Below are positions 34,073-58,841 of a stretch of DNA of 64,000 bases, piece after piece. The number at the start of each line of letters is the position of its first letter. The stretch's first letter is position 1. Below the pieces are notes generated by a model, which saw only the letters and a program-made list of their open reading frames with translations, made no database searches and had not been told where the DNA came from. Source of the DNA: Gemmatimonadota bacterium (GTDB lineage: Bacteria; Gemmatimonadota; Gemmatimonadetes; Palauibacterales; Palauibacteraceae). The position numbers were made by a program, and so were the translations under genes. Location of the stretch: NCBI GenBank assembly GCA_039589295.1, contig JBDHHR010000001.1, positions 127,558 to 191,557 on the forward strand, in the 5' to 3' direction.

Positions 34073-34147
34073 TGGCAGGGGCGGGATTTGAACCCGCGAC
34101 CTAGGGCTTATGAGTCCCCCGCTCTGACCAGACTGAGCTACCCTGCC
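34073..34147 (-). tRNA. tRNA with CAT anticodon (Met or Ile2/lysidine)
   Basis: Minus-strand sequence GGCAGGGTAGCTCAGTCTGGTCAGAGCGGGGGACTCATAAGCCCTAGGTCGCGGGTTCAAATCCCGCCCCTGCCA folds as a cloverleaf with a CTCATAA anticodon loop and a GGTTCAAAT T-loop. No CCA is encoded. Confidence 0.8.
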
Positions 34148-34207: not shown

Positions 34208-34284
<77 letters not shown>

Positions 34285-49374: not shown

Positions 49375-50582
49375 GCTCTCTCCACGCTCAGAGCCACCGC
49401 GTTGCCGCCCCCCAGACACAAGGTGGCGATGCCCCTTTCGACTTCTCGATCCCGCATCGCGTACAGAAGAGTCGTGAGGATCCTCGCGCCGGATGCCCCT
49501 ATCGGGTGTCCGAGAGCGATCGCTCCGCCACGCACGTTGACCCGCTCGAGGTCGAGGTCCAGCGCACGGGCGTCGGCCAGTGCCTGCACCGCGAAGGCCT
49601 CGTTCATCTCGACCAGGCCGTAGTCCTCGAGGGAGGTACCTTCCTGATCCAGCAGCCTGCGCACCGCCAGGACCGGGGCGAAGAAGAGGTCCTGCGGCGC
49701 CGTGGCGCCGACCGAATATGCGCTGATCCGCGCGAGGATGTCCAGTCCGTTCGCACGTGCGTAGGCCTCCGAGGTGACGACCGTCGCGGCCGCGCCGTCG
49801 TTGAGCCCGGGAGCGTTCCCGGCCGTGACGCTGTGCTCGGTTACCTCGGGCGGAGCATCGGCCGCGAAGGCCGGTCTCAAGCGGGCCAGTGCCTCGAGCG
49901 AGGTGTCCCGCCGGGGCGTCTCGTCCACGTCAACGGTGACGGTGCCTTTCCGGCCCTCGATCTCCACCGGAACGATCTCCGCCACGAACTCTCCGGCGTC
50001 GATGGCGGCCACGGCTTTCCGGTGGCTCGACAGCGCGAACAGGTCCTGGTCCTCGCGCGAGATCCCCGCCTTGTGGGCCGTGTACTCGGCGTGCCCGCCC
50101 ATGTGACACTGGCCGAAGGAACACCACAGCCCATCGTGTATCAGCGAGTCCACGACAGGGCGATCACCGAACTTGACCCCCAACCGGTAGCCGGTCAGCA
50201 GGTGAGGGGCGTTCGACATGGACTCCATTCCGCCGGCGACCACGACCTGCTGATCGCCAGCCTTGATGGCCTGGGCTGCGAGCATCACCGCCTTGAGCCC
50301 CGAGCCGCAGACCTTGTTGACGGTCACCGCGGGAATCGTCTCCGGCAGCTCAGCCGCGATGGCAGCCTGCCGTGCCGGAGCCTGCCCCACGCCCGCCTGG
50401 ATAACGTTGCCCATGATCACGTCGTCTATCTCATCGCCGACTATTCCGCTGCGCTCGATCGCAGCGGCGATCGCCCGGCCGCCGAGCTGCGTAGCGGTGA
50501 GGGGCGACAGACCGCCGAGAAAACGGCCAGTGGGAAGCCGAACCGCCCCCACGATGACCGGTGTCTTTTCCGCATCACTCAT
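49371..50582 (-). CDS. Acetyl-CoA C-acetyltransferase (thiolase II)
   Basis: VNKVCGSGLKAV (active Cys), C-terminal GHPIGASGARI and CLGGGNAVA. The start was trimmed to MSDAEKTPVIVGA, where the ATG overlaps the upstream stop (ATGA). Confidence 0.9.
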   Translation of the reverse strand: MSDAEKTPVIVGAVRLPTGRFLGGLSPLTATQLGGRAIAAAIERSGIVGDEIDDVIMGNVIQAGVGQAPARQAAIAAELPETIPAVTVNKVCGSGLKAVMLAAQAIKAGDQQVVVAGGMESMSNAPHLLTGYRLGVKFGDRPVVDSLIHDGLWCSFGQCHMGGHAEYTAHKAGISREDQDLFALSSHRKAVAAIDAGEFVAEIVPVEIEGRKGTVTVDVDETPRRDTSLEALARLRPAFAADAPPEVTEHSVTAGNAPGLNDGAAATVVTSEAYARANGLDILARISAYSVGATAPQDLFFAPVLAVRRLLDQEGTSLEDYGLVEMNEAFAVQALADARALDLDLERVNVRGGAIALGHPIGASGARILTTLLYAMRDREVERGIATLCLGGGNAVALSVERA

Positions 50583-50806
50583 TTGAGCCACTCCTCGCAG
50601 CCGTCCCGGCGTCGCGTGTCCGCCAGACCGACGATCTCCCATTCGTCGACGACCCGTGCGATCTGAAAGACGTTCACGCCGCAGTGACTGAGCTGGCCGT
50701 TGAGGTAGAACGCGTTTCCTTCTCCGGAGTCTGCGCCCGCGTCTGATCGGCAACCGGCCCCTGAAGAACCGCGACTACCGACAGCGCGACGCTCAGGGGG
50801 CACCAC
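50579..50806 (-). CDS. Candidate small ORF (75 aa) translationally coupled to thiolase
   Basis: Its stop overlaps the thiolase ATG (ATGA), and its start lies 2 nt after the upstream MBL stop. The N-terminus is low-complexity. The C-terminal NAFYLNGQLSHCGVNVFQIARVVDEWEIVGL is protein-like. Confidence 0.3.
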   Translation of the reverse strand: MVPPERRAVGSRGSSGAGCRSDAGADSGEGNAFYLNGQLSHCGVNVFQIARVVDEWEIVGLADTRRRDGCEEWLK

Positions 50807-50807
50807 A

Positions 50808-51695
50808 TTACCGCTCCTCCGCGAGCGGATCGCTCACTTCGTCCACCAAGCGGCAACCGCTCTGCCCGTCCGACTGCGCCGCCGCGCGTCCCCAGGCTAC
50901 CCGCGGATCGTGCTCGAAGGCCAGGATCCAGCCCTCTTCTCCGGCTCGCCCGAGGATTCTGCGTTTGCTTTCCAGAGTGACCAGCGGCTCGACGTCGTAG
51001 CCCATAATCCATGGAAGCCGCAGGTGAGCCAGCGTCGGAACCAGGTCGGCCAGATACAGCAGGCGGACGTCGCCCAGTTCCACCACAACCGACTGGTGGT
51101 GAGGCGTGTGGCCCGGTGTATGCACGACCCGAACTCCGGGTGCCACCTCTCCGTCCGCGTCGGCGAAGTCGACGCGGCCGGCCTCCACCAGCGGCACGAC
51201 GTTGTCCCGAATGTAGCTGGCCCGGACCCGCTCGTTGTCCTGTTGCGCAAACTCCCACTCTCCGCGACGGATCACGTACCGGGCACCCGGGAAAGCGGCC
51301 TTAATCGATCCGTTATCGTCTCGAACCGTGTTCCCGCCTGCGTGATCGAAGTGAAGATGGGTGTTTATCACGATGTCGATCTGGTCCGGTTCAACCCCGA
51401 GGCCGCGCAGGGAGTCCTCCAGCCTCGTCGGATGTCCGTCGTTCTCGACCCCGTAAATCTCCCTGAACCTGGAATCCTCTTTGTTGCCCAGGCCCGTATC
51501 CACCAGGATCCTGAGTCCATCAGTCTCCACGAGCAGGCACCGCATGGCGAGAGGGATCCGGTTGCGATCGTCGGCCGGAGCAACGCGGACCCACAGAGGC
51601 TTCGGGACGACCCCGAACATGGCCCCTCCGTCAAGCCGGAGTCCGCCGGCGTGAACCGTGCTGACTCGAACGCCGCCGCCCTCCAGAACCGGCAT
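50808..51695 (-). CDS. MBL-fold metallo-hydrolase
   Basis: INTHLHFDHAGGN (HxHxDH), plus later TPGHTPHH. Confidence 0.8.
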   Translation of the reverse strand: MPVLEGGGVRVSTVHAGGLRLDGGAMFGVVPKPLWVRVAPADDRNRIPLAMRCLLVETDGLRILVDTGLGNKEDSRFREIYGVENDGHPTRLEDSLRGLGVEPDQIDIVINTHLHFDHAGGNTVRDDNGSIKAAFPGARYVIRRGEWEFAQQDNERVRASYIRDNVVPLVEAGRVDFADADGEVAPGVRVVHTPGHTPHHQSVVVELGDVRLLYLADLVPTLAHLRLPWIMGYDVEPLVTLESKRRILGRAGEEGWILAFEHDPRVAWGRAAAQSDGQSGCRLVDEVSDPLAEER

Positions 51696-51696
51696 C

Positions 51697-52557
51697 TCAA
51701 GCCTCCGCCGTGTGCCCGTCAGGCGGTGCCGCGGGTGTGGGGGCGAGGCTTCCGGTCAGCCATTGCTGAAGGTTCCTCCACGTATTCACACCCTGGCGGT
51801 CCGCCGCTGCCAGCAGGCGCAGGAGGATGCTCGCCGTCGCCCTCGCGTCTCCACCCGCCCGGTGCCGACCCACGATCTCGACGTCGTAGAAGCGGGCCAG
51901 CGAGTCCAGTCCCCGCCGGCGCAGGCCCGGCAGGGCCCGCCGCGCCAGCTTCACCGTGCAAAGCCGGGGACCTGAAGGCAGCAGCGATCGCGAACGCCTC
52001 ATTTCCTCAGCCACGAATCTCCAGTCGAAGCCCACGTTGTGGGCGACGAAGACTCTCCCGCGCAGGTTCTCCTGCACGACTCCGGCGACATCCTCGAAGC
52101 GCGGCGCGCCAGCCACCATCCCGGAATCGATGCCGGTCAGCCGGCTCACCCAGCGGGGAATGGCAAGGCCCGGATTGACCAGAGACTCGAACTCCCCGCT
52201 GACGCGCCCGCCGCTCACCTGCACGACCGCGATCTCCACTATCCGTGCGCCGCGCGTAACCGAGCTGCCGGTGGTTTCCACGTCCACGACCGCATAGTCC
52301 AGCTCGTCGAGTTGCGTATCCACGCCCAGCGACGGAACGGCCGTCAGCCGCCACACGCCCTGGCGGTCTACTTCCACCCGGCGATCCGTCCCCAGCAATT
52401 CATACACCAGTCGCGAAGCCAGTCCCGGAGGAGCCTGTTTCAGGCCGAAGACGGTTCGCGCCAGCACCTCTGTCGGCATCGGCGTTCCGCGGATCGCACT
52501 CAGGGCTCGCTGTACCAGGCTGGAGTCCGCCGCGAAATCCAACCCCGGTCCGGTCAC
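51697..52557 (-). CDS. DnaQ-like 3'-5' exonuclease domain protein (DEDDh) with N-terminal extension
   Basis: Exo I motif YAVVDVETTG, then HNVGFDWRF, then the Exo III region H...GGDARAT. It has a roughly 90 aa N-terminal region of unknown function. It overlaps the rex stop (ATGA). Confidence 0.75.
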   Translation of the reverse strand: MTGPGLDFAADSSLVQRALSAIRGTPMPTEVLARTVFGLKQAPPGLASRLVYELLGTDRRVEVDRQGVWRLTAVPSLGVDTQLDELDYAVVDVETTGSSVTRGARIVEIAVVQVSGGRVSGEFESLVNPGLAIPRWVSRLTGIDSGMVAGAPRFEDVAGVVQENLRGRVFVAHNVGFDWRFVAEEMRRSRSLLPSGPRLCTVKLARRALPGLRRRGLDSLARFYDVEIVGRHRAGGDARATASILLRLLAAADRQGVNTWRNLQQWLTGSLAPTPAAPPDGHTAEA

Positions 52558-53207
52558 GCCTTCTCCCCCGAGCCGTTCCCACCACTGGAGGAGAGCAGGA
52601 AGCTGAGACCTTCCAGCTCGAGAGACACGTCCATCGATCGCACAACGACATGCGGGGCCACTTCCAGCTTCACCGGAGCGAAGTTGAGGATCGCCGGGAC
52701 GCCAGCCGCGGCTGCCCTGGAGGCCACGCTCTGAGCTGAGTCAGGCGGCGTGGCGATGATGGCGATGTCGACCCGCGCTGACGCCAGGTCCGCCTCCAGC
52801 GACGCAAGCGAGCGGACTCGGACGCCCCCGAGCTTCTCGTCCACCTTGACGGGATCCGAGTCGAAGGCGGCGACGATATCGAATCCCCGCTGCGTCAGAT
52901 CGCCATAGCCCAACAAAGCCGAGCCGATCTTCCCCACCCCGATGACGGCGACGTGCCATCGGCGGCCGAGCCCGAGAATCTCCCGCAGTGAGCGCCTGAG
53001 CTCCGACGCCACGTATCCCTGTCCTCGCTTGCCGAACGACCCGAAGTGGCTCAGATCCTTCCGGACCTGGGCGGCCGTCGTGCCCGTTCCTTCCGCGAGC
53101 TCGCGGCTGGAGACAATGTCCTTCCCCACCCGCTCGAGATCCCGCAGGAACCGCAGGTAGCGGGAGAGCCGCCGGACCGCCGAGTCGGAGATTCTTTTTC
53201 TCGTCAT
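52554..53207 (-). CDS. rex: Redox-sensing transcriptional repressor Rex
   Basis: ISDSAVRRLSRYLRFLRDL winged-helix N-terminus (cf. B. subtilis Rex IPQATAKRLPLYYRFLKNL) and a Rossmann domain (HVAVIGVGKIGSALLGY). The long N-terminal extension of the track ORF was trimmed. Confidence 0.85.
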   Translation of the reverse strand: MTRKRISDSAVRRLSRYLRFLRDLERVGKDIVSSRELAEGTGTTAAQVRKDLSHFGSFGKRGQGYVASELRRSLREILGLGRRWHVAVIGVGKIGSALLGYGDLTQRGFDIVAAFDSDPVKVDEKLGGVRVRSLASLEADLASARVDIAIIATPPDSAQSVASRAAAAGVPAILNFAPVKLEVAPHVVVRSMDVSLELEGLSFLLSSSGGNGSGEKA

Positions 53208-53215
53208 GCACCGGC

Positions 53216-53233
53216 TTGTGAAAGTGTTCACAA
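53216..53233. promoter_or_regulatory. Rex operator (ROP box)
   Basis: TTGTGAAAGTGTTCACAA is a perfect match to the Rex consensus TTGTGAA-N4-TTCACAA. It lies 9 nt upstream of the rex start codon. Confidence 0.7.
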
Positions 53234-53275
53234 AAAGATAGCCGGGGGCAAACCCGATCTCAACACGGGATTCCG

Positions 53276-54131: not shown

Positions 54132-55649
54132 TCACTTCACCACGAGCGCCGTGCGATCGTCCGCCGATACTCCGCCGGGCGCACACGCCAGTTCGAAGAG
54201 CCCGTCCAGTATCGCCTGTGCCCCGGAGTCCGATCCCTCGAGCGCTACGGCGGTCAGCTGATCGTCGGACCAGAGCTGGTCCGTGCGCAGGCACTCGCTG
54301 ACGCCGTCCGTGAACATAAGGAGAGTATGGTCTCCTGGTCGCCACTCCACCTCGCGCTGCGCGTAGGAGTCGAACTCGGCGATCCCGAGCGGTGGGTTGA
54401 GCGCCTCGAGGCGTACCGCCTCCTCGGGACCGATGCGATACGCGTGGGGGTGGCCCGCGTTCGCATATCGCAGGACCTGTGTATCAGCGTCGATCACTGC
54501 GTAACACAACGTCATGTACATCTCCGTCGACTCGAGCTTCCGAACCAGCTCGTGGTGGATCCCCTTCAGAACCTCCGCCGGCTGTTCCTCCTCACTCACT
54601 ACCAGGGACGCGGCGCTCATCGTGAGCGCCATGATCAGGCCGGCCGAGTAGCCATGCGAGCTGACATCTCCCAGCATCACGCCCAGGCGGTCTCCCGGAA
54701 GCCTGAAGAAGTGGTAAAAATCACCGCCGACGGACTCTGCCGGCTCGCACCGCGCTGCCACGTCAGCGAGCGACTTGAAGTCGCCGAGTTCCGGCAGGAG
54801 CTTGAGTTGCAGGTGATGGGCCAGTTCCAGCTCGACCAACATCCGCTCCTGCTCCAGGCTCTCGCGTACCAGCCGGCCGTTCTCCATCGCCGCCGCGAGA
54901 TGACTGGCGATAGCTGCGGCCAGATTCACGTCCGCCTGTGAGAAACTTTCCCGACCCGCACCCCCGCGAAGGCTCAGTACGCCCACGGCATGCGACCGGC
55001 CGTGCAGCACCGAATGTCGCACCGGAACGGCGAGAAAAGGCCTCGCTTCTTCCTCGCCGTCCGCGCCAGGCGCCGCATCCCTGACGAACTTGGTGTGGGT
55101 CGAGTACACGTCCGCGATCGGAGATCGGCCGTCTCCCAATGGAACGCGGTCGGGGTGCACCGGCTCGGTGCCTCCCGAGGCGTAGACGGTAAGCTCACGT
55201 TCTCCTTCGTCGGGAACCCACAAGGCGGCGAGGTCGGCCTCCATCACCTCCATCACGTGGTCCAGGAGCTGACCCGCGGCTCTCTCCAGGTGAATGATGG
55301 AACCGAGCGTCTCACTGATGGACGTGAGGAGAGCGATCTCTTCGTACCGTTCAGCGAGCTCCTGGCTGAAGAAGTGCGCCTCCCGCTCCGAGGCGACCAG
55401 CCGGCAAAGCGACTCGCGCAGGAGATCGCGGCTCACCTTCCATTCGGCGCCGGTCGACGGACCTACTGCGACCCGGACGGCGACAGCGGGTGATACCGTC
55501 CACGTCTCCTCGATGAACTCGCTCCCGGCCGTGTTGCCCAGTGAGTCATGAAGGATGACCGGCCCCCCCTCGCCCTCCAAGACCGCCCGGAAGGGCAAGC
55601 CTGAAAGCTTGCGAAACGCAGCCAGGTACTCGCTGACCCGAGTCGTCAT
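54132..55649 (-). CDS. GAF-domain PP2C-type serine phosphatase (RsbU/SpoIIE-like)
   Basis: N-terminal GAF-like region and a C-terminal PP2C/SpoIIE domain (GDFYHFF, MLGDVSSHG, TDGVSE). The start was trimmed to MTTRVSEYL. Confidence 0.8.
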   Translation of the reverse strand: MTTRVSEYLAAFRKLSGLPFRAVLEGEGGPVILHDSLGNTAGSEFIEETWTVSPAVAVRVAVGPSTGAEWKVSRDLLRESLCRLVASEREAHFFSQELAERYEEIALLTSISETLGSIIHLERAAGQLLDHVMEVMEADLAALWVPDEGERELTVYASGGTEPVHPDRVPLGDGRSPIADVYSTHTKFVRDAAPGADGEEEARPFLAVPVRHSVLHGRSHAVGVLSLRGGAGRESFSQADVNLAAAIASHLAAAMENGRLVRESLEQERMLVELELAHHLQLKLLPELGDFKSLADVAARCEPAESVGGDFYHFFRLPGDRLGVMLGDVSSHGYSAGLIMALTMSAASLVVSEEEQPAEVLKGIHHELVRKLESTEMYMTLCYAVIDADTQVLRYANAGHPHAYRIGPEEAVRLEALNPPLGIAEFDSYAQREVEWRPGDHTLLMFTDGVSECLRTDQLWSDDQLTAVALEGSDSGAQAILDGLFELACAPGGVSADDRTALVVK

Positions 55650-56446
55650 GCTTCCAGGGTCAGCGTGACGGAGTTGCCCTTCTCGTTGAAGCGGATATCG
55701 TCCGTCAGGCTGCGCAGAAGGAACAAACCTCTGCCGTGGCTGCGCCATCGATTCTCCGGACGCGTAGGGTCGCCCACGACGGACGGGTCGAAGCCCGCAC
55801 CTTCGTCGGTGATGGTGACCACGGCTGTGCCCGGACGCAGTTCGGCATTCACCCGCACGAGCTTCGCGGGATCCTCCCTGTTTCCGTAGAGGATGGCGTT
55901 GGCCAGCGCTTCACCGATGGCGACACGCAAGTTGAGCGTCGCCCGGGAACCCGTGAAAGCCATCCGCTGGCAGGCCTCGACGACCTCCGCCACGACGTCA
56001 CGGACGTAGCTGACGCTCGATGGGAACTCGAGCTCCAGGCTGGCACTCAGCCCGGACGAGCGCAGGGCGCGGGTCCCTCCCTGCCCGGCCAGGTGGCGGC
56101 GCCAGCGAAGGCCCAGCTCCGCCGGGTTGATTGGATAGAACAGGTAGTCCCCGCAGCCGGCGGCAAGAGCCGCCAGAAGCCTGTCGACCGACTCGTTGTC
56201 CACGACTGCGATCAGCTCCAAGTCCGTACCAAAGGCGAGCCTGGCCTCGCGCGCCGAGTGATCGGCGTCGGCCAGGTCGAGCAGGGCCAGACCCGGCGCG
56301 ACTTGCGGCCAGTCCGCGCGTGTGGCCGCTATGGTCGTCTCCGCTCCCAGTTGTCTGAGCTCGCGCGCGAGATCGTCTGCGACCTCCCGCCGACCGGAGC
56401 AGATCAGGACCGTCGAGCCCGGCCTCCCCATGCCGTCGGAGCTCAC
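55646..56446 (-). CDS. Receiver-like (degenerate) domain fused to an RsbW/SpoIIAB-type anti-sigma-factor serine kinase (HATPase_c)
   Basis: The N-terminal roughly 120 aa have a CheY-like topology with the Asp57-equivalent present (LLDLADAD), but they lack the DD acidic pair (VLICSGRRE) and the conserved Lys (DYLFYPINP). The C-terminal half has N-box EALANAILYGN and G-boxes TDEGAGFDP and GRGLFLLRSL. Confidence 0.7.
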   Translation of the reverse strand: MSSDGMGRPGSTVLICSGRREVADDLARELRQLGAETTIAATRADWPQVAPGLALLDLADADHSAREARLAFGTDLELIAVVDNESVDRLLAALAAGCGDYLFYPINPAELGLRWRRHLAGQGGTRALRSSGLSASLELEFPSSVSYVRDVVAEVVEACQRMAFTGSRATLNLRVAIGEALANAILYGNREDPAKLVRVNAELRPGTAVVTITDEGAGFDPSVVGDPTRPENRWRSHGRGLFLLRSLTDDIRFNEKGNSVTLTLEA

Positions 56447-56456
56447 TTCCTCCCCA

Positions 56457-56795
56457 TCAGAAGCCCGAGAGAGCCATCGCCCGCGTATCGGCGATCTGAA
56501 AAAGCGTATCCAGCTTGGTGAGCTCGAACAGCGTCCTGAGGTCTTCGTTGAGCCCCGCCAGCCGCAGGCCGCCTCCTGCTTCCCGGATCTTCTTGGACAG
56601 GCTCACCAGCACCCCCAGGCCCGATGAATCGATATAGCTGGACGCGGAGAAGTCGATGAGGAATTTCCGTTCGCCCGCGTCGAGCCGATCAAGCACGACC
56701 TGCTTGAGCTCCTGGCGGTTTCCGACGATGAGCTCGCCATCCACCGAGACGATCGTGATGCCGCTGGTTTCCGAGATCGAGAAACTCATCCTCAC
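56457..56795 (-). CDS. STAS-domain anti-sigma-factor antagonist (RsbV/SpoIIAA-like)
   Basis: 112 aa STAS with the phosphorylatable-Ser context DFSASSYIDSSGLGVLV. Confidence 0.85.
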   Translation of the reverse strand: MRMSFSISETSGITIVSVDGELIVGNRQELKQVVLDRLDAGERKFLIDFSASSYIDSSGLGVLVSLSKKIREAGGGLRLAGLNEDLRTLFELTKLDTLFQIADTRAMALSGF

Positions 56796-56819: not shown

Positions 56820-57785
56820 TTACGCGCCCGTCTCAGCGTGCGCCATCAAAGCGGTAATGTAGGACACGTGCACGATGTCATCGATAGAGGCACCGCGCGA
56901 CAGATCGTTCAGTGGGCGTGCGAGCCCCTGCAGAATGGGCCCCAACGCGTGTGCGCCTCCAAGCCAGCGAACCAGCTTGTAGCCGATGTTGGCAGCGTTG
57001 AGGTCCGGAAACACGAGAATGTTCGCCTGGCCGCCCAACGTCGAGCCGGGAGCCTTTCTTTCCGCCACTTCGGGGCTCAAGGCGGCGTCCGCCTGAAGCT
57101 CTCCGTCGCAGATCACGTCCGGGCAACGGCCGCGGAAGATCCGCATCGCCTCCCGCAGCCTCGTGACCGACTCACCGACGGCGGAGCCGTAGGTCGAGTA
57201 AGAGAGGAACGCCAGGCGCGGCGCGTCGCCCACGATCACACGCCTGGCCCGGCAGGCCGCCTGTGCAATATCCGCCAGCTGAGTCTCCGTCGGGTGAGGC
57301 ACGACCGCAGCATCGGCGAAGGTGAGTACGCGTTCCGGCTCGCGCCCGCGTGCCGGGATAATCATGTAGAAGGACCCCGATACGGTTCGCATGCCCGGTT
57401 CCGTGCCGAGGACCTTCAGTCCGGCCCGAACCACATCTGCGGTCGAGCTCTGCGCTCCGGCCACAACCCCGTCCAGCACTCCAGCCTTCATCAGCGCCAC
57501 GGCTATGTACAGCGGCTCCCGGGCGCTCTCCCCGAGAGAAGCCGGCAGGTGCATCCTTGCTGCCTTTCCCACTCCGCGGTCTGCGGGTTCGAGCAACTCG
57601 AGGTCCGGCAGATCATGCAGCAGGTCGGCCACCTCGTCGAGCTCCTCAACCAGGACAGGACGGATTCCGCCGTTCCGGTAGAGCCGACGGATTGCTTCGC
57701 GGGTCCTCACCTCCCGGGCCTCGGGGAATCCCAGCCGTACCGCTCTCCGGGCTGCTCGGCTCTCCAGGTCGGAGAGGAAGCTCAT
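56820..57785 (-). CDS. pta: Phosphate acetyl/butyryl-transferase (PTA_PTB family)
   Basis: Conserved PTA_PTB core (FLSYSTYGS, ILVFPDLNAANIGYKLV, SRGASIDDIV). The start was trimmed to the Met overlapping the coaD stop (ATGA). Confidence 0.8.
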   Translation of the reverse strand: MSFLSDLESRAARRAVRLGFPEAREVRTREAIRRLYRNGGIRPVLVEELDEVADLLHDLPDLELLEPADRGVGKAARMHLPASLGESAREPLYIAVALMKAGVLDGVVAGAQSSTADVVRAGLKVLGTEPGMRTVSGSFYMIIPARGREPERVLTFADAAVVPHPTETQLADIAQAACRARRVIVGDAPRLAFLSYSTYGSAVGESVTRLREAMRIFRGRCPDVICDGELQADAALSPEVAERKAPGSTLGGQANILVFPDLNAANIGYKLVRWLGGAHALGPILQGLARPLNDLSRGASIDDIVHVSYITALMAHAETGA

Positions 57786-58285
57786 CCCGTTCCGGACGCC
57801 TGCCCGTAACGTCGCTGCAGTCGGACGAGCACCGGCGCCGGCACGAAGCGGGACACGTCGCCTCCCAGACTGGCCACCTCCCGCACGAGGGACGAGCTGA
57901 GAAACGTGTAGCTGCTCGCCGGGGCCATGAAGATTACCTCGATCTCCGGCCACAGCGAACGGTTCATCAGGGCCATCTGGAACTCGTACTCGAAATCGCT
58001 GACGGCTCGCAGGCCTCTTATGATCAGGCGGGCTGCACGCTCGCGGGCGAAGTCCACCAGCAGCCCCGAGAACGAAGCGACCTCCACCCGCGGCTCGTCC
58101 TCGTACACCTCCTGCATGACCTCGACGCGTTCTTCGACCGAGAACGCCGCAGCCTTCTCCTGCGTGGCGGTTCCCGCCACGGCCACGATGAGTCGATCAG
58201 CGAGCTTGAGGCTCCGACGCACGATGTCGTCGTGGCCCAGAGTCAGCGGATCGAACGAACCGGGGTAGATGGCGATTCGCAGGTT
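57782..58285 (-). CDS. coaD: Phosphopantetheine adenylyltransferase
   Basis: IAIYPGSFDPLTLGHDDIV (H/T-x-G-H). The start was trimmed and is probably non-ATG. Confidence 0.85.
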   Translation of the reverse strand, partial: NLRIAIYPGSFDPLTLGHDDIVRRSLKLADRLIVAVAGTATQEKAAAFSVEERVEVMQEVYEDEPRVEVASFSGLLVDFARERAARLIIRGLRAVSDFEYEFQMALMNRSLWPEIEVIFMAPASSYTFLSSSLVREVASLGGDVSRFVPAPVLVRLQRRYGQASGTG

Positions 58286-58841
58286 AGTCTCCAACTGATG
58301 CTCCTCCCGCGCCTGCCCGAAAGAAGGACAGGATGGTGTCACCGTACCGGCGGCGCCAGGCGGGCGCTACCTCTGTCGGGTCGGCGGGACCATGCTCCAC
58401 GCACAGGAGGCCCGCGAAGGGTGACTTCACGAAGCGTCTCACCAACCGGTCCGCACCTTCGGACTCGTACGGTGGATCCGCCAGCACGATGTCGAATTCG
58501 TGATCGACCGTGGACAACCGACTGACGAAACTCAGGGCCTCTCCCCGGGTCACCTGTGTCCGCTGCTCCACGTCCAACGCGTGCAGGTTCCTGCGTAGGA
58601 CCGCGCACGCTCGGCGGTCCGCTTCCACGAAATGAACCTTGGAAGCGCCGCGCGACAACGCCTCCAGGCCTAGAGCGCCGCTGCCGGCGTACAGATCGAG
58701 CACCCGGGCTCCGGGCAACGCCCCTCCGAGAGCGCTGAACCACGCCTCCCGCACCACCTCCCGCGTGGGTCGTGTCTCGCGCCCCGGCGGCGCCTCGATG
58801 CGGCGCCCGCCGAACTCGCCGGCAACGATCCGCAGGCTCAC
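58284..58841 (-). CDS. rsmD: 16S rRNA (guanine966-N2)-methyltransferase
   Basis: RIVAGEFGGRRIEAPPGRETRPTREVVREAWFSAL...VLDLYAGSGALGLEALSRGA...DPPY. The start was trimmed to a GTG after the recJ stop. Classic rsmD-coaD pair. Confidence 0.8.
   Translation of the reverse strand: MSLRIVAGEFGGRRIEAPPGRETRPTREVVREAWFSALGGALPGARVLDLYAGSGALGLEALSRGASKVHFVEADRRACAVLRRNLHALDVEQRTQVTRGEALSFVSRLSTVDHEFDIVLADPPYESEGADRLVRRFVKSPFAGLLCVEHGPADPTEVAPAWRRRYGDTILSFFRAGAGGASVGD

Follow-up and report, generated by a model that had tools for sequence, protein, structure and literature searches.

The window analysed here is a 64-kb stretch of Gemmatimonadota DNA with a GC content of 66 %, and the gene of interest within it, at 52554-53207, encodes a redox-sensing transcriptional repressor, Rex, of 217 aa. 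The gene lies on the minus strand (the sequence-only reading of this DNA had given no strand), with its ATG at 53207 and its stop codon at 52554-52556, and an identical protein in public gene calls has the same start. Within the protein, Pfam recognizes an N-terminal winged-helix DNA-binding domain at residues 6-53 (PF06971; 9.3e-19, 67.7 bits against a cut-off of 27) and a CoA_binding/Rossmann domain at residues 83-179 (PF02629; 5.8e-18). The protein also scores above the cut-offs of the NCBIfam models NF003995 (240.5 vs 126 bits), NF003992 (229.1 vs 226) and NF003993 (225.2 vs 217). The best match among solved structures is Rex of Thermus (T-Rex; 3IKT/1XCB, operator-bound), which aligns over residues 5-205 with an E value of ~6e-43 and, in phmmer, yields 150 bits over ~200 aligned residues. 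The recognition helix and wing (AAQVRKDLSHFGSFGKRGQGY) do not vary among the 30 Gemmatimonadota Rex proteins compared and can be aligned with their Thermus counterparts; the core of the recognition helix, QVRKDLS, is identical in the two proteins, whereas the wing, GSFGKRGQGY in the window and GSYGTRGVGY in T-Rex, differs by several substitutions. Likewise invariant in the 30 proteins are a GxGxxG motif (GVGKIGS; G90, G92 and G95) and D116, which align with GMGRLGS and FDVDP of T-Rex, such that both the glycine motif and the aspartate of FD.DP are conserved; we take D116 to be the ribose-binding Asp, with the role that its equivalent has in T-Rex. The two proteins have nevertheless diverged. 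Based on the curated models and on the alignment to solved Rex structures, the gene is identified as rex.

Directly upstream of rex is an 18-bp palindrome, TTGTGAAAGTGTTCACAA, which occupies positions 53216-53233 and, on the minus strand from which rex is read, appears as TTGTGAACACTTTCACAA. It fits the Rex consensus TTGTGAA-N4-TTCACAA with 0 mismatches and is annotated as a Rex operator (ROP) based on that exact fit, on its score with a position weight matrix (PWM) and on the 80 related loci described below. The exact consensus occurs only once in the window and in none of 100 dinucleotide-preserving shuffles. The sequence-only reading was right to place a perfect Rex operator immediately 5' of rex, and its distance of 9 nt to the start of the gene is also correct if counted from the last base of the box to the A of the ATG, there being 8 bases (53208-53215) in between. 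No obvious Shine-Dalgarno sequence is present in those 8 nt. When a PWM was built from the 80 orthologous sites, the window box scored 32.5 bits, and nothing else in the 64 kb, nor anything in the shuffles, attained the threshold of 8 bits. Further sites were sought in the window by allowing up to four mismatches to the consensus, but the four near-matches obtained have 3-4 mismatches each and all lie within long, high-GC3 open reading frames (ORFs), and none is credible. The window therefore yields no regulon, and there is no sign in its 64 kb of Rex targets beyond the operon of rex itself.

For comparison across the phylum, 80 loci of ~8.6 kb each, 617 kb in total, were retrieved from species-representative genomes by means of a 30-homologue Rex alignment. 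Nearly all of these are labelled as Gemmatimonadota lineages, while a few are labelled "bacterium" only or bear another name; the named homologues of the window Rex belong to the Gemmatimonadota/Gemmatimonadetes. The Rex proteins of the 80 loci are 52-66 % identical to that of the window. In all 80, the best match to the Rex consensus near rex is located directly upstream of the gene; 66 of the boxes fit the consensus exactly, 12 deviate at one position and a single box each deviates at two and at three positions; with the window box included, exact fits number 67 of 81. In the entire 617 kb of locus DNA, there are 79 sites with no more than two mismatches, and every one of them is rex-upstream. 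The central N4 spacer, by comparison, exists in 33 different sequences, the flanks of the box cannot be aligned among relatives, and, in a box-anchored alignment, information is near zero except in the box arms and in the -35- and -10-like hexamers that are considered below. The conservation of the arms amid a variable spacer and variable flanks argues for selection on the arms as opposed to shared recent ancestry. The idea that the palindrome is a functionless product of chance retains a negligible probability, given that no shuffle contains an exact match and that the box is present in 80/80 species.

The identity of the conserved positions also bears on which type of regulator would recognize the box. 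Since it contains the core TGTGA-N6-TCACA, the palindrome might be taken for the site of a regulator of the CRP/FNR family. That core is the consensus of Escherichia coli CRP, and CRP-type sites thus have the 5-bp arm core and its spacing in common with the window box; however, the TT that precedes the core, as well as A7 and T12, follows the Rex consensus. Those positions that distinguish Rex, namely T1, T2, A7 (76/81) and T12 (80/81), are almost invariant among the boxes. Moreover, the box strictly co-occurs with rex, being found beside it in 80/80 genomes and nowhere else in the 617 kb, and a Pfam examination of neighbouring genes revealed none of the CRP family. With the core present and the inner positions being of the Rex type, recognition by a CRP/FNR-family protein is judged very improbable. 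The centre of the box is asymmetric, in that T (59) and A (20) predominate at position 11 of the 81 boxes while the mirror position, 8, is without preference. In many lineages, the promoter-distal arm is followed by a G, often as GCC. Such asymmetries of the centre and the flank may reflect a constraint on the initial transcribed sequence or the leader.

A consensus scan of the region upstream of rex predicts one promoter-like site where 0.1 would be expected. It is composed of a -10-like hexamer, TATCTT (53235-53240, minus strand), that ends 1 nt before the operator and a -35-like hexamer, TTGAGA (53258-53263, minus strand), that is 17 nt farther upstream, with TTGAGA-17-TATCTT matching 9 of the 12 positions of a consensus that may not be that of the Gemmatimonadota. 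Among the 81 sequences, a TAnnnT hexamer always ends between 4 nt before the box and 2 nt inside it (i.e. a gap of -2 to +4 nt). A -35-like element of the TTGAC/TTGAG sort, at a spacing of 17-18 nt, occurs in most relatives, and 55 of the 81 sequences score at least 7/12; approximately one-third of the relatives, mainly Gemmatimonadaceae, are without a good -35. In Gemmatimonadaceae loci, the motif CTGGTR (CTGGTG/CTGGTA) is situated ~25-30 nt upstream of the box, at the -35 position and in place of TTGAC/TTGAG, and this motif could represent a different type of -35, the preference of a different sigma factor or the site of a second regulator. The distance from the box to the start codon is 3-16 nt in 73 of the 81 sequences and 36-112 nt in six lineages, and in those six long-leader lineages the box still adjoins the -10-like hexamer. 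Because the gap between hexamer and box is fixed even when the start codon is 36-112 nt away, the conserved relation is that of the box to the promoter.

Assuming a start of transcription ~7 nt after the -10-like hexamer, the transcription start site (TSS) of rex would be located within the left half-site of the box, at roughly 53226-53229. Two other arrangements were considered and set aside. A leaderless rex mRNA is unlikely, since the six bases that occupy -12 to -7 relative to the ATG, ACAAGC, do not resemble a -10 element. Similarly, a Bacteroidetes-type -7 motif (TAnnTTTG) that uses the first bases of the box fits most of the sequences in which hexamer and box overlap by 1 nt, but both the window and the remaining clades depart from it, and it so offers no general explanation. 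A box that is conserved 5' of rex in 80/80 species while its flanks are not, and that is adjoined by a -10-like hexamer, is what comparative genomics normally takes to mark a functional autoregulatory operator, and it is as such that the palindrome is read here.

The placement of the box also invites the question of whether the operator might be situated wholly in a transcribed leader, with a TSS farther upstream (through read-through from rsmA/ksgA or from another promoter) and with Rex acting as a roadblock to elongation rather than by occluding the promoter. The rsmA/ksgA gene ends 68 nt upstream on the same strand, and the only terminator-like element 3' of it is a weak hairpin of doubtful status (53242-53257, minus strand; 5 pairs then CTATCTTTTT) that falls within the promoter spacer, terminator-like sites in the rex-upstream scan being no more numerous than in shuffles. 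Furthermore, ksgA is directly upstream and on the same strand in 43 of the 80 relatives, and Rex sites downstream of a TSS are known, e.g. that of cydA1 at -3 to +25 (PMC5355995). Yet, the -10-like hexamer is fixed against the box in 81/81 sequences, including those from inverted-rex lineages in which there is no same-strand gene upstream, and this makes a pure roadblock unlikely, albeit the least unlikely of the rival readings. A further possibility is that the inverted repeat acts as RNA, i.e. as a hairpin in the rex leader that influences stability or translation. A 6-7 bp stem does appear in the minimum-free-energy fold of 53275-53190; however, the stability of that fold is ordinary (z = -0.65, with 48 of 200 shuffles being at least as stable), there is no match in Rfam, and changes in the arms among relatives are 15 one-sided vs 1 compensatory, indicating that it is the sequence, and not the pairing, that is conserved. 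In addition, a TSS inside the left arm, as predicted, would mean that the hairpin cannot form in the primary transcript. The RNA-hairpin reading was rejected on the basis of the fold, Rfam and arm-change results, its probability being put slightly below even that of a CRP/FNR site.

Downstream of rex are two genes that are closely packed on the same, minus strand. The first (51697-52557) encodes a DEDD (DnaQ-like) 3'-5' exonuclease (Pfam PF00929, RNase_T; 2.7e-31), whose GTG start overlaps the rex stop by 4 nt, with an alternative call that begins 12 nt later. The second (50808-51695), which starts 1 nt past the stop of the exonuclease gene, encodes an MBL-fold hydrolase (Pfam PF00753, 3.9e-24) that is YtnP-lactonase-like, although its 196 bits with NCBIfam NF047919 are below the equivalog cut-off of 425. 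No promoter-like or terminator-like sites are predicted between the genes for Rex, the exonuclease and the MBL hydrolase. Since the gaps are of 12 nt or less and contain no such sites, the three genes probably constitute one operon and, in this genome, would be co-repressed by Rex. A thiolase (acetyl-CoA acetyltransferase) gene follows the MBL hydrolase gene after a gap of ~225 nt (50582-50808), its ATG being near 50582, and no promoter or terminator is predicted in that gap either. The mechanical ORF call for the thiolase starts from a TTG (50753) and is probably ~57 codons too long at its 5' end. Of the 80 loci, ~24 have a thiolase gene downstream of rex and on its strand, among them L009-L013, in which it comes directly after the exonuclease gene.

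Among the 80 loci, the genes for the SpoIIE-type phosphatase, KsgA, Rex, the exonuclease, the MBL hydrolase and the thiolase make up a conserved block, albeit one with variable linkage. In the closest relatives, a gene of the arginine-deiminase family (PF02274, 6.4e-67) is interposed between rex and the exonuclease gene and overlaps the end of rex. This gene occurs in L001 (4684-5901) as well as in L002-L008, L010, L014 and others, and it is missing in the window, where rex adjoins the exonuclease gene directly. In Gemmatimonadaceae loci (L018-L020, L022, L026, L032, L034, L037, L043, L045 and others), rex is turned around within the block; in L018, its neighbours are a divergent exonuclease gene on one side and a convergent ksgA on the other, and it is the only gene between them. 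Nevertheless, Gemmatimonadaceae with an inverted rex retain the box and its position against the -10-like hexamer. Given that the linkage of genes varies and yet the box is constant, the predicted autoregulation emerges as the conserved feature and any co-regulated cargo as lineage-specific. Thus, the earlier proposal that Rex also controls whatever is co-transcribed downstream survives in part: it is plausible in the window, with its gaps of 12 nt or less and with no predicted promoter or terminator between the genes, but the linkage that it presupposes is not conserved across the phylum.

Some other neighbours deserve mention. Just upstream of ksgA, on the minus strand at 54132-56795, is a partner-switching-type module consisting of genes for a STAS anti-sigma antagonist (56795-56457), a HATPase_c_2 protein with an N-terminal extension (56446-55646) and a GAF-SpoIIE/PP2C phosphatase (55748-54132), each of them on the minus strand, and, in most relatives, synteny with ksgA-rex extends to the phosphatase gene. 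Beyond the module, also on the minus strand, the ORF calls for a phosphate acetyl/butyryl-transferase (PTA_PTB; 56820-57953) and for a CTP_transf_like, CoaD-like protein (57782-58342) overlap by ~170 nt, and the start called for PTA_PTB is probably over-extended. Genes of the pta type are targets of Rex in some Firmicutes; there is no Rex site before pta in the window. Elsewhere, two adjacent tRNA matches are on the minus strand at 34073-34147 and 34214-34284, the second scoring 31.5 bits against an Rfam gathering threshold of 29.

Taken together, these data lead us to propose that the palindrome very probably serves Rex as the operator for repression of its own promoter. Members of the Rex family bind ROP sites as dimers and repress transcription, with DNA binding being lowered by NADH, against which NAD+ competes (PMC2883068, PMC5355995, PMC8376106). 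In the window, a Rex dimer carrying NAD+ would bind the 18-bp box, which, as it begins 1 nt after the -10-like hexamer, would have the bound protein covering roughly -5 to +13 of the predicted rex promoter. There, Rex would block either the binding of RNA polymerase or the formation of the open complex, and it may also roadblock whatever read-through, if any, arrives from rsmA/ksgA. Upon a rise in the NADH/NAD+ ratio, NADH in the Rossmann domain would close the dimer, Rex would come off the DNA and transcription would resume, yielding a transcript that most likely comprises rex, the DEDD exonuclease gene and the MBL-fold hydrolase gene. The promoter, the TSS, the binding of Rex, the response to NADH and the extent of the transcript are all predictions from sequence. 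The autoregulation that the sequence-only reading had seen as implied by the operator now draws support from the identity of Rex, from a box that is present in 80/80 relatives with unconserved flanks, from the -10-like hexamer that adjoins it and from precedent in other phyla (PMC5355995, PMC6154617, PMC6391272).

A precedent to compare is the rex-hemACD operon of Streptomyces (S. coelicolor and S. avermitilis), where an 18-bp palindrome of the same type (TTGTGCACGCGTTCACAA in S. avermitilis) is in the rex promoter and where, as is probable in the window, rex is the first gene of the operon. Repression of Streptomyces rex is relieved by NADH, based on EMSA, ChIP and footprinting (PMC5355995). 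However, the footprint of S. avermitilis Rex on its own rex-hemAC1DB promoter extends from -39 to -17 (PMC5355995) and overlaps the -35, whereas the box in the window is predicted to span -5 to +13, past the -10-like hexamer. The systems also differ in what is downstream, i.e. genes for haem synthesis in Streptomyces as opposed to those for a DEDD exonuclease, an MBL hydrolase and, in relatives, an arginine deiminase, and in phylum, Streptomyces being in the Actinomycetota and the window in the Gemmatimonadota. In EMSA with Streptococcus suis Rex, DNA of the rex promoter is shifted, an effect that is lost in the presence of NADH (PMC6154617). Caldicellulosiruptor bescii Rex autoregulates as well (PMC6391272). 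The window resembles both of these in having Rex at its own promoter, with the binding being known in S. suis and C. bescii and predicted here. The S. suis site, unlike the window box, is degenerate (TGTTGATTTTTTCACAA) and overlaps the -35. Since S. suis and C. bescii are low-GC Firmicutes, an AT-rich box stands out far less in their genomes than it does in the 66 % GC genome of the window. S. suis Rex also controls arcA, for arginine deiminase (PMC6154617), the product of which belongs to the same enzyme family as that of the gene following rex in the closest relatives of the window.

A broader and considerably more speculative hypothesis, one that we rate as rather improbable in its entirety, is that Rex of the Gemmatimonadota serves mainly as a positionally fixed, self-contained autoregulatory module, the unusual NADH/NAD+-controlled cargo of which would be the DEDD exonuclease, the MBL-fold hydrolase and, in the closest relatives, the arginine deiminase. 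Under that hypothesis, the asymmetry of the box (T/A at position 11 and not at 8) and the G that follows it would point to a second function, belonging to the initial transcribed sequence. If true, this would mean that, in a Gram-negative phylum, the processing of nucleic acids or the fermentation of arginine is tied to redox state.

Rex operators and the autoregulation of Rex are well known, and the site in the window is very probably an ordinary self-regulation switch. A literature search on Rex and the Gemmatimonadota found no study linking the two, and, in what is a review-type statement, Rex appears to be absent from most Gram-negative bacteria (PMC8376106). The 81 anchored promoters afford an incidental view of predicted Gemmatimonadota promoters, with TTGAC/TTGAG, 17 nt and TAnnnT as their elements, and the box provides a high-confidence seed motif for the genome-wide reconstruction of the Rex regulon in this phylum. 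While leaving the understanding of Rex action unchanged, the present analysis would extend a textbook redox switch, comprising Rex, its operator and negative autoregulation, to the Gemmatimonadota.
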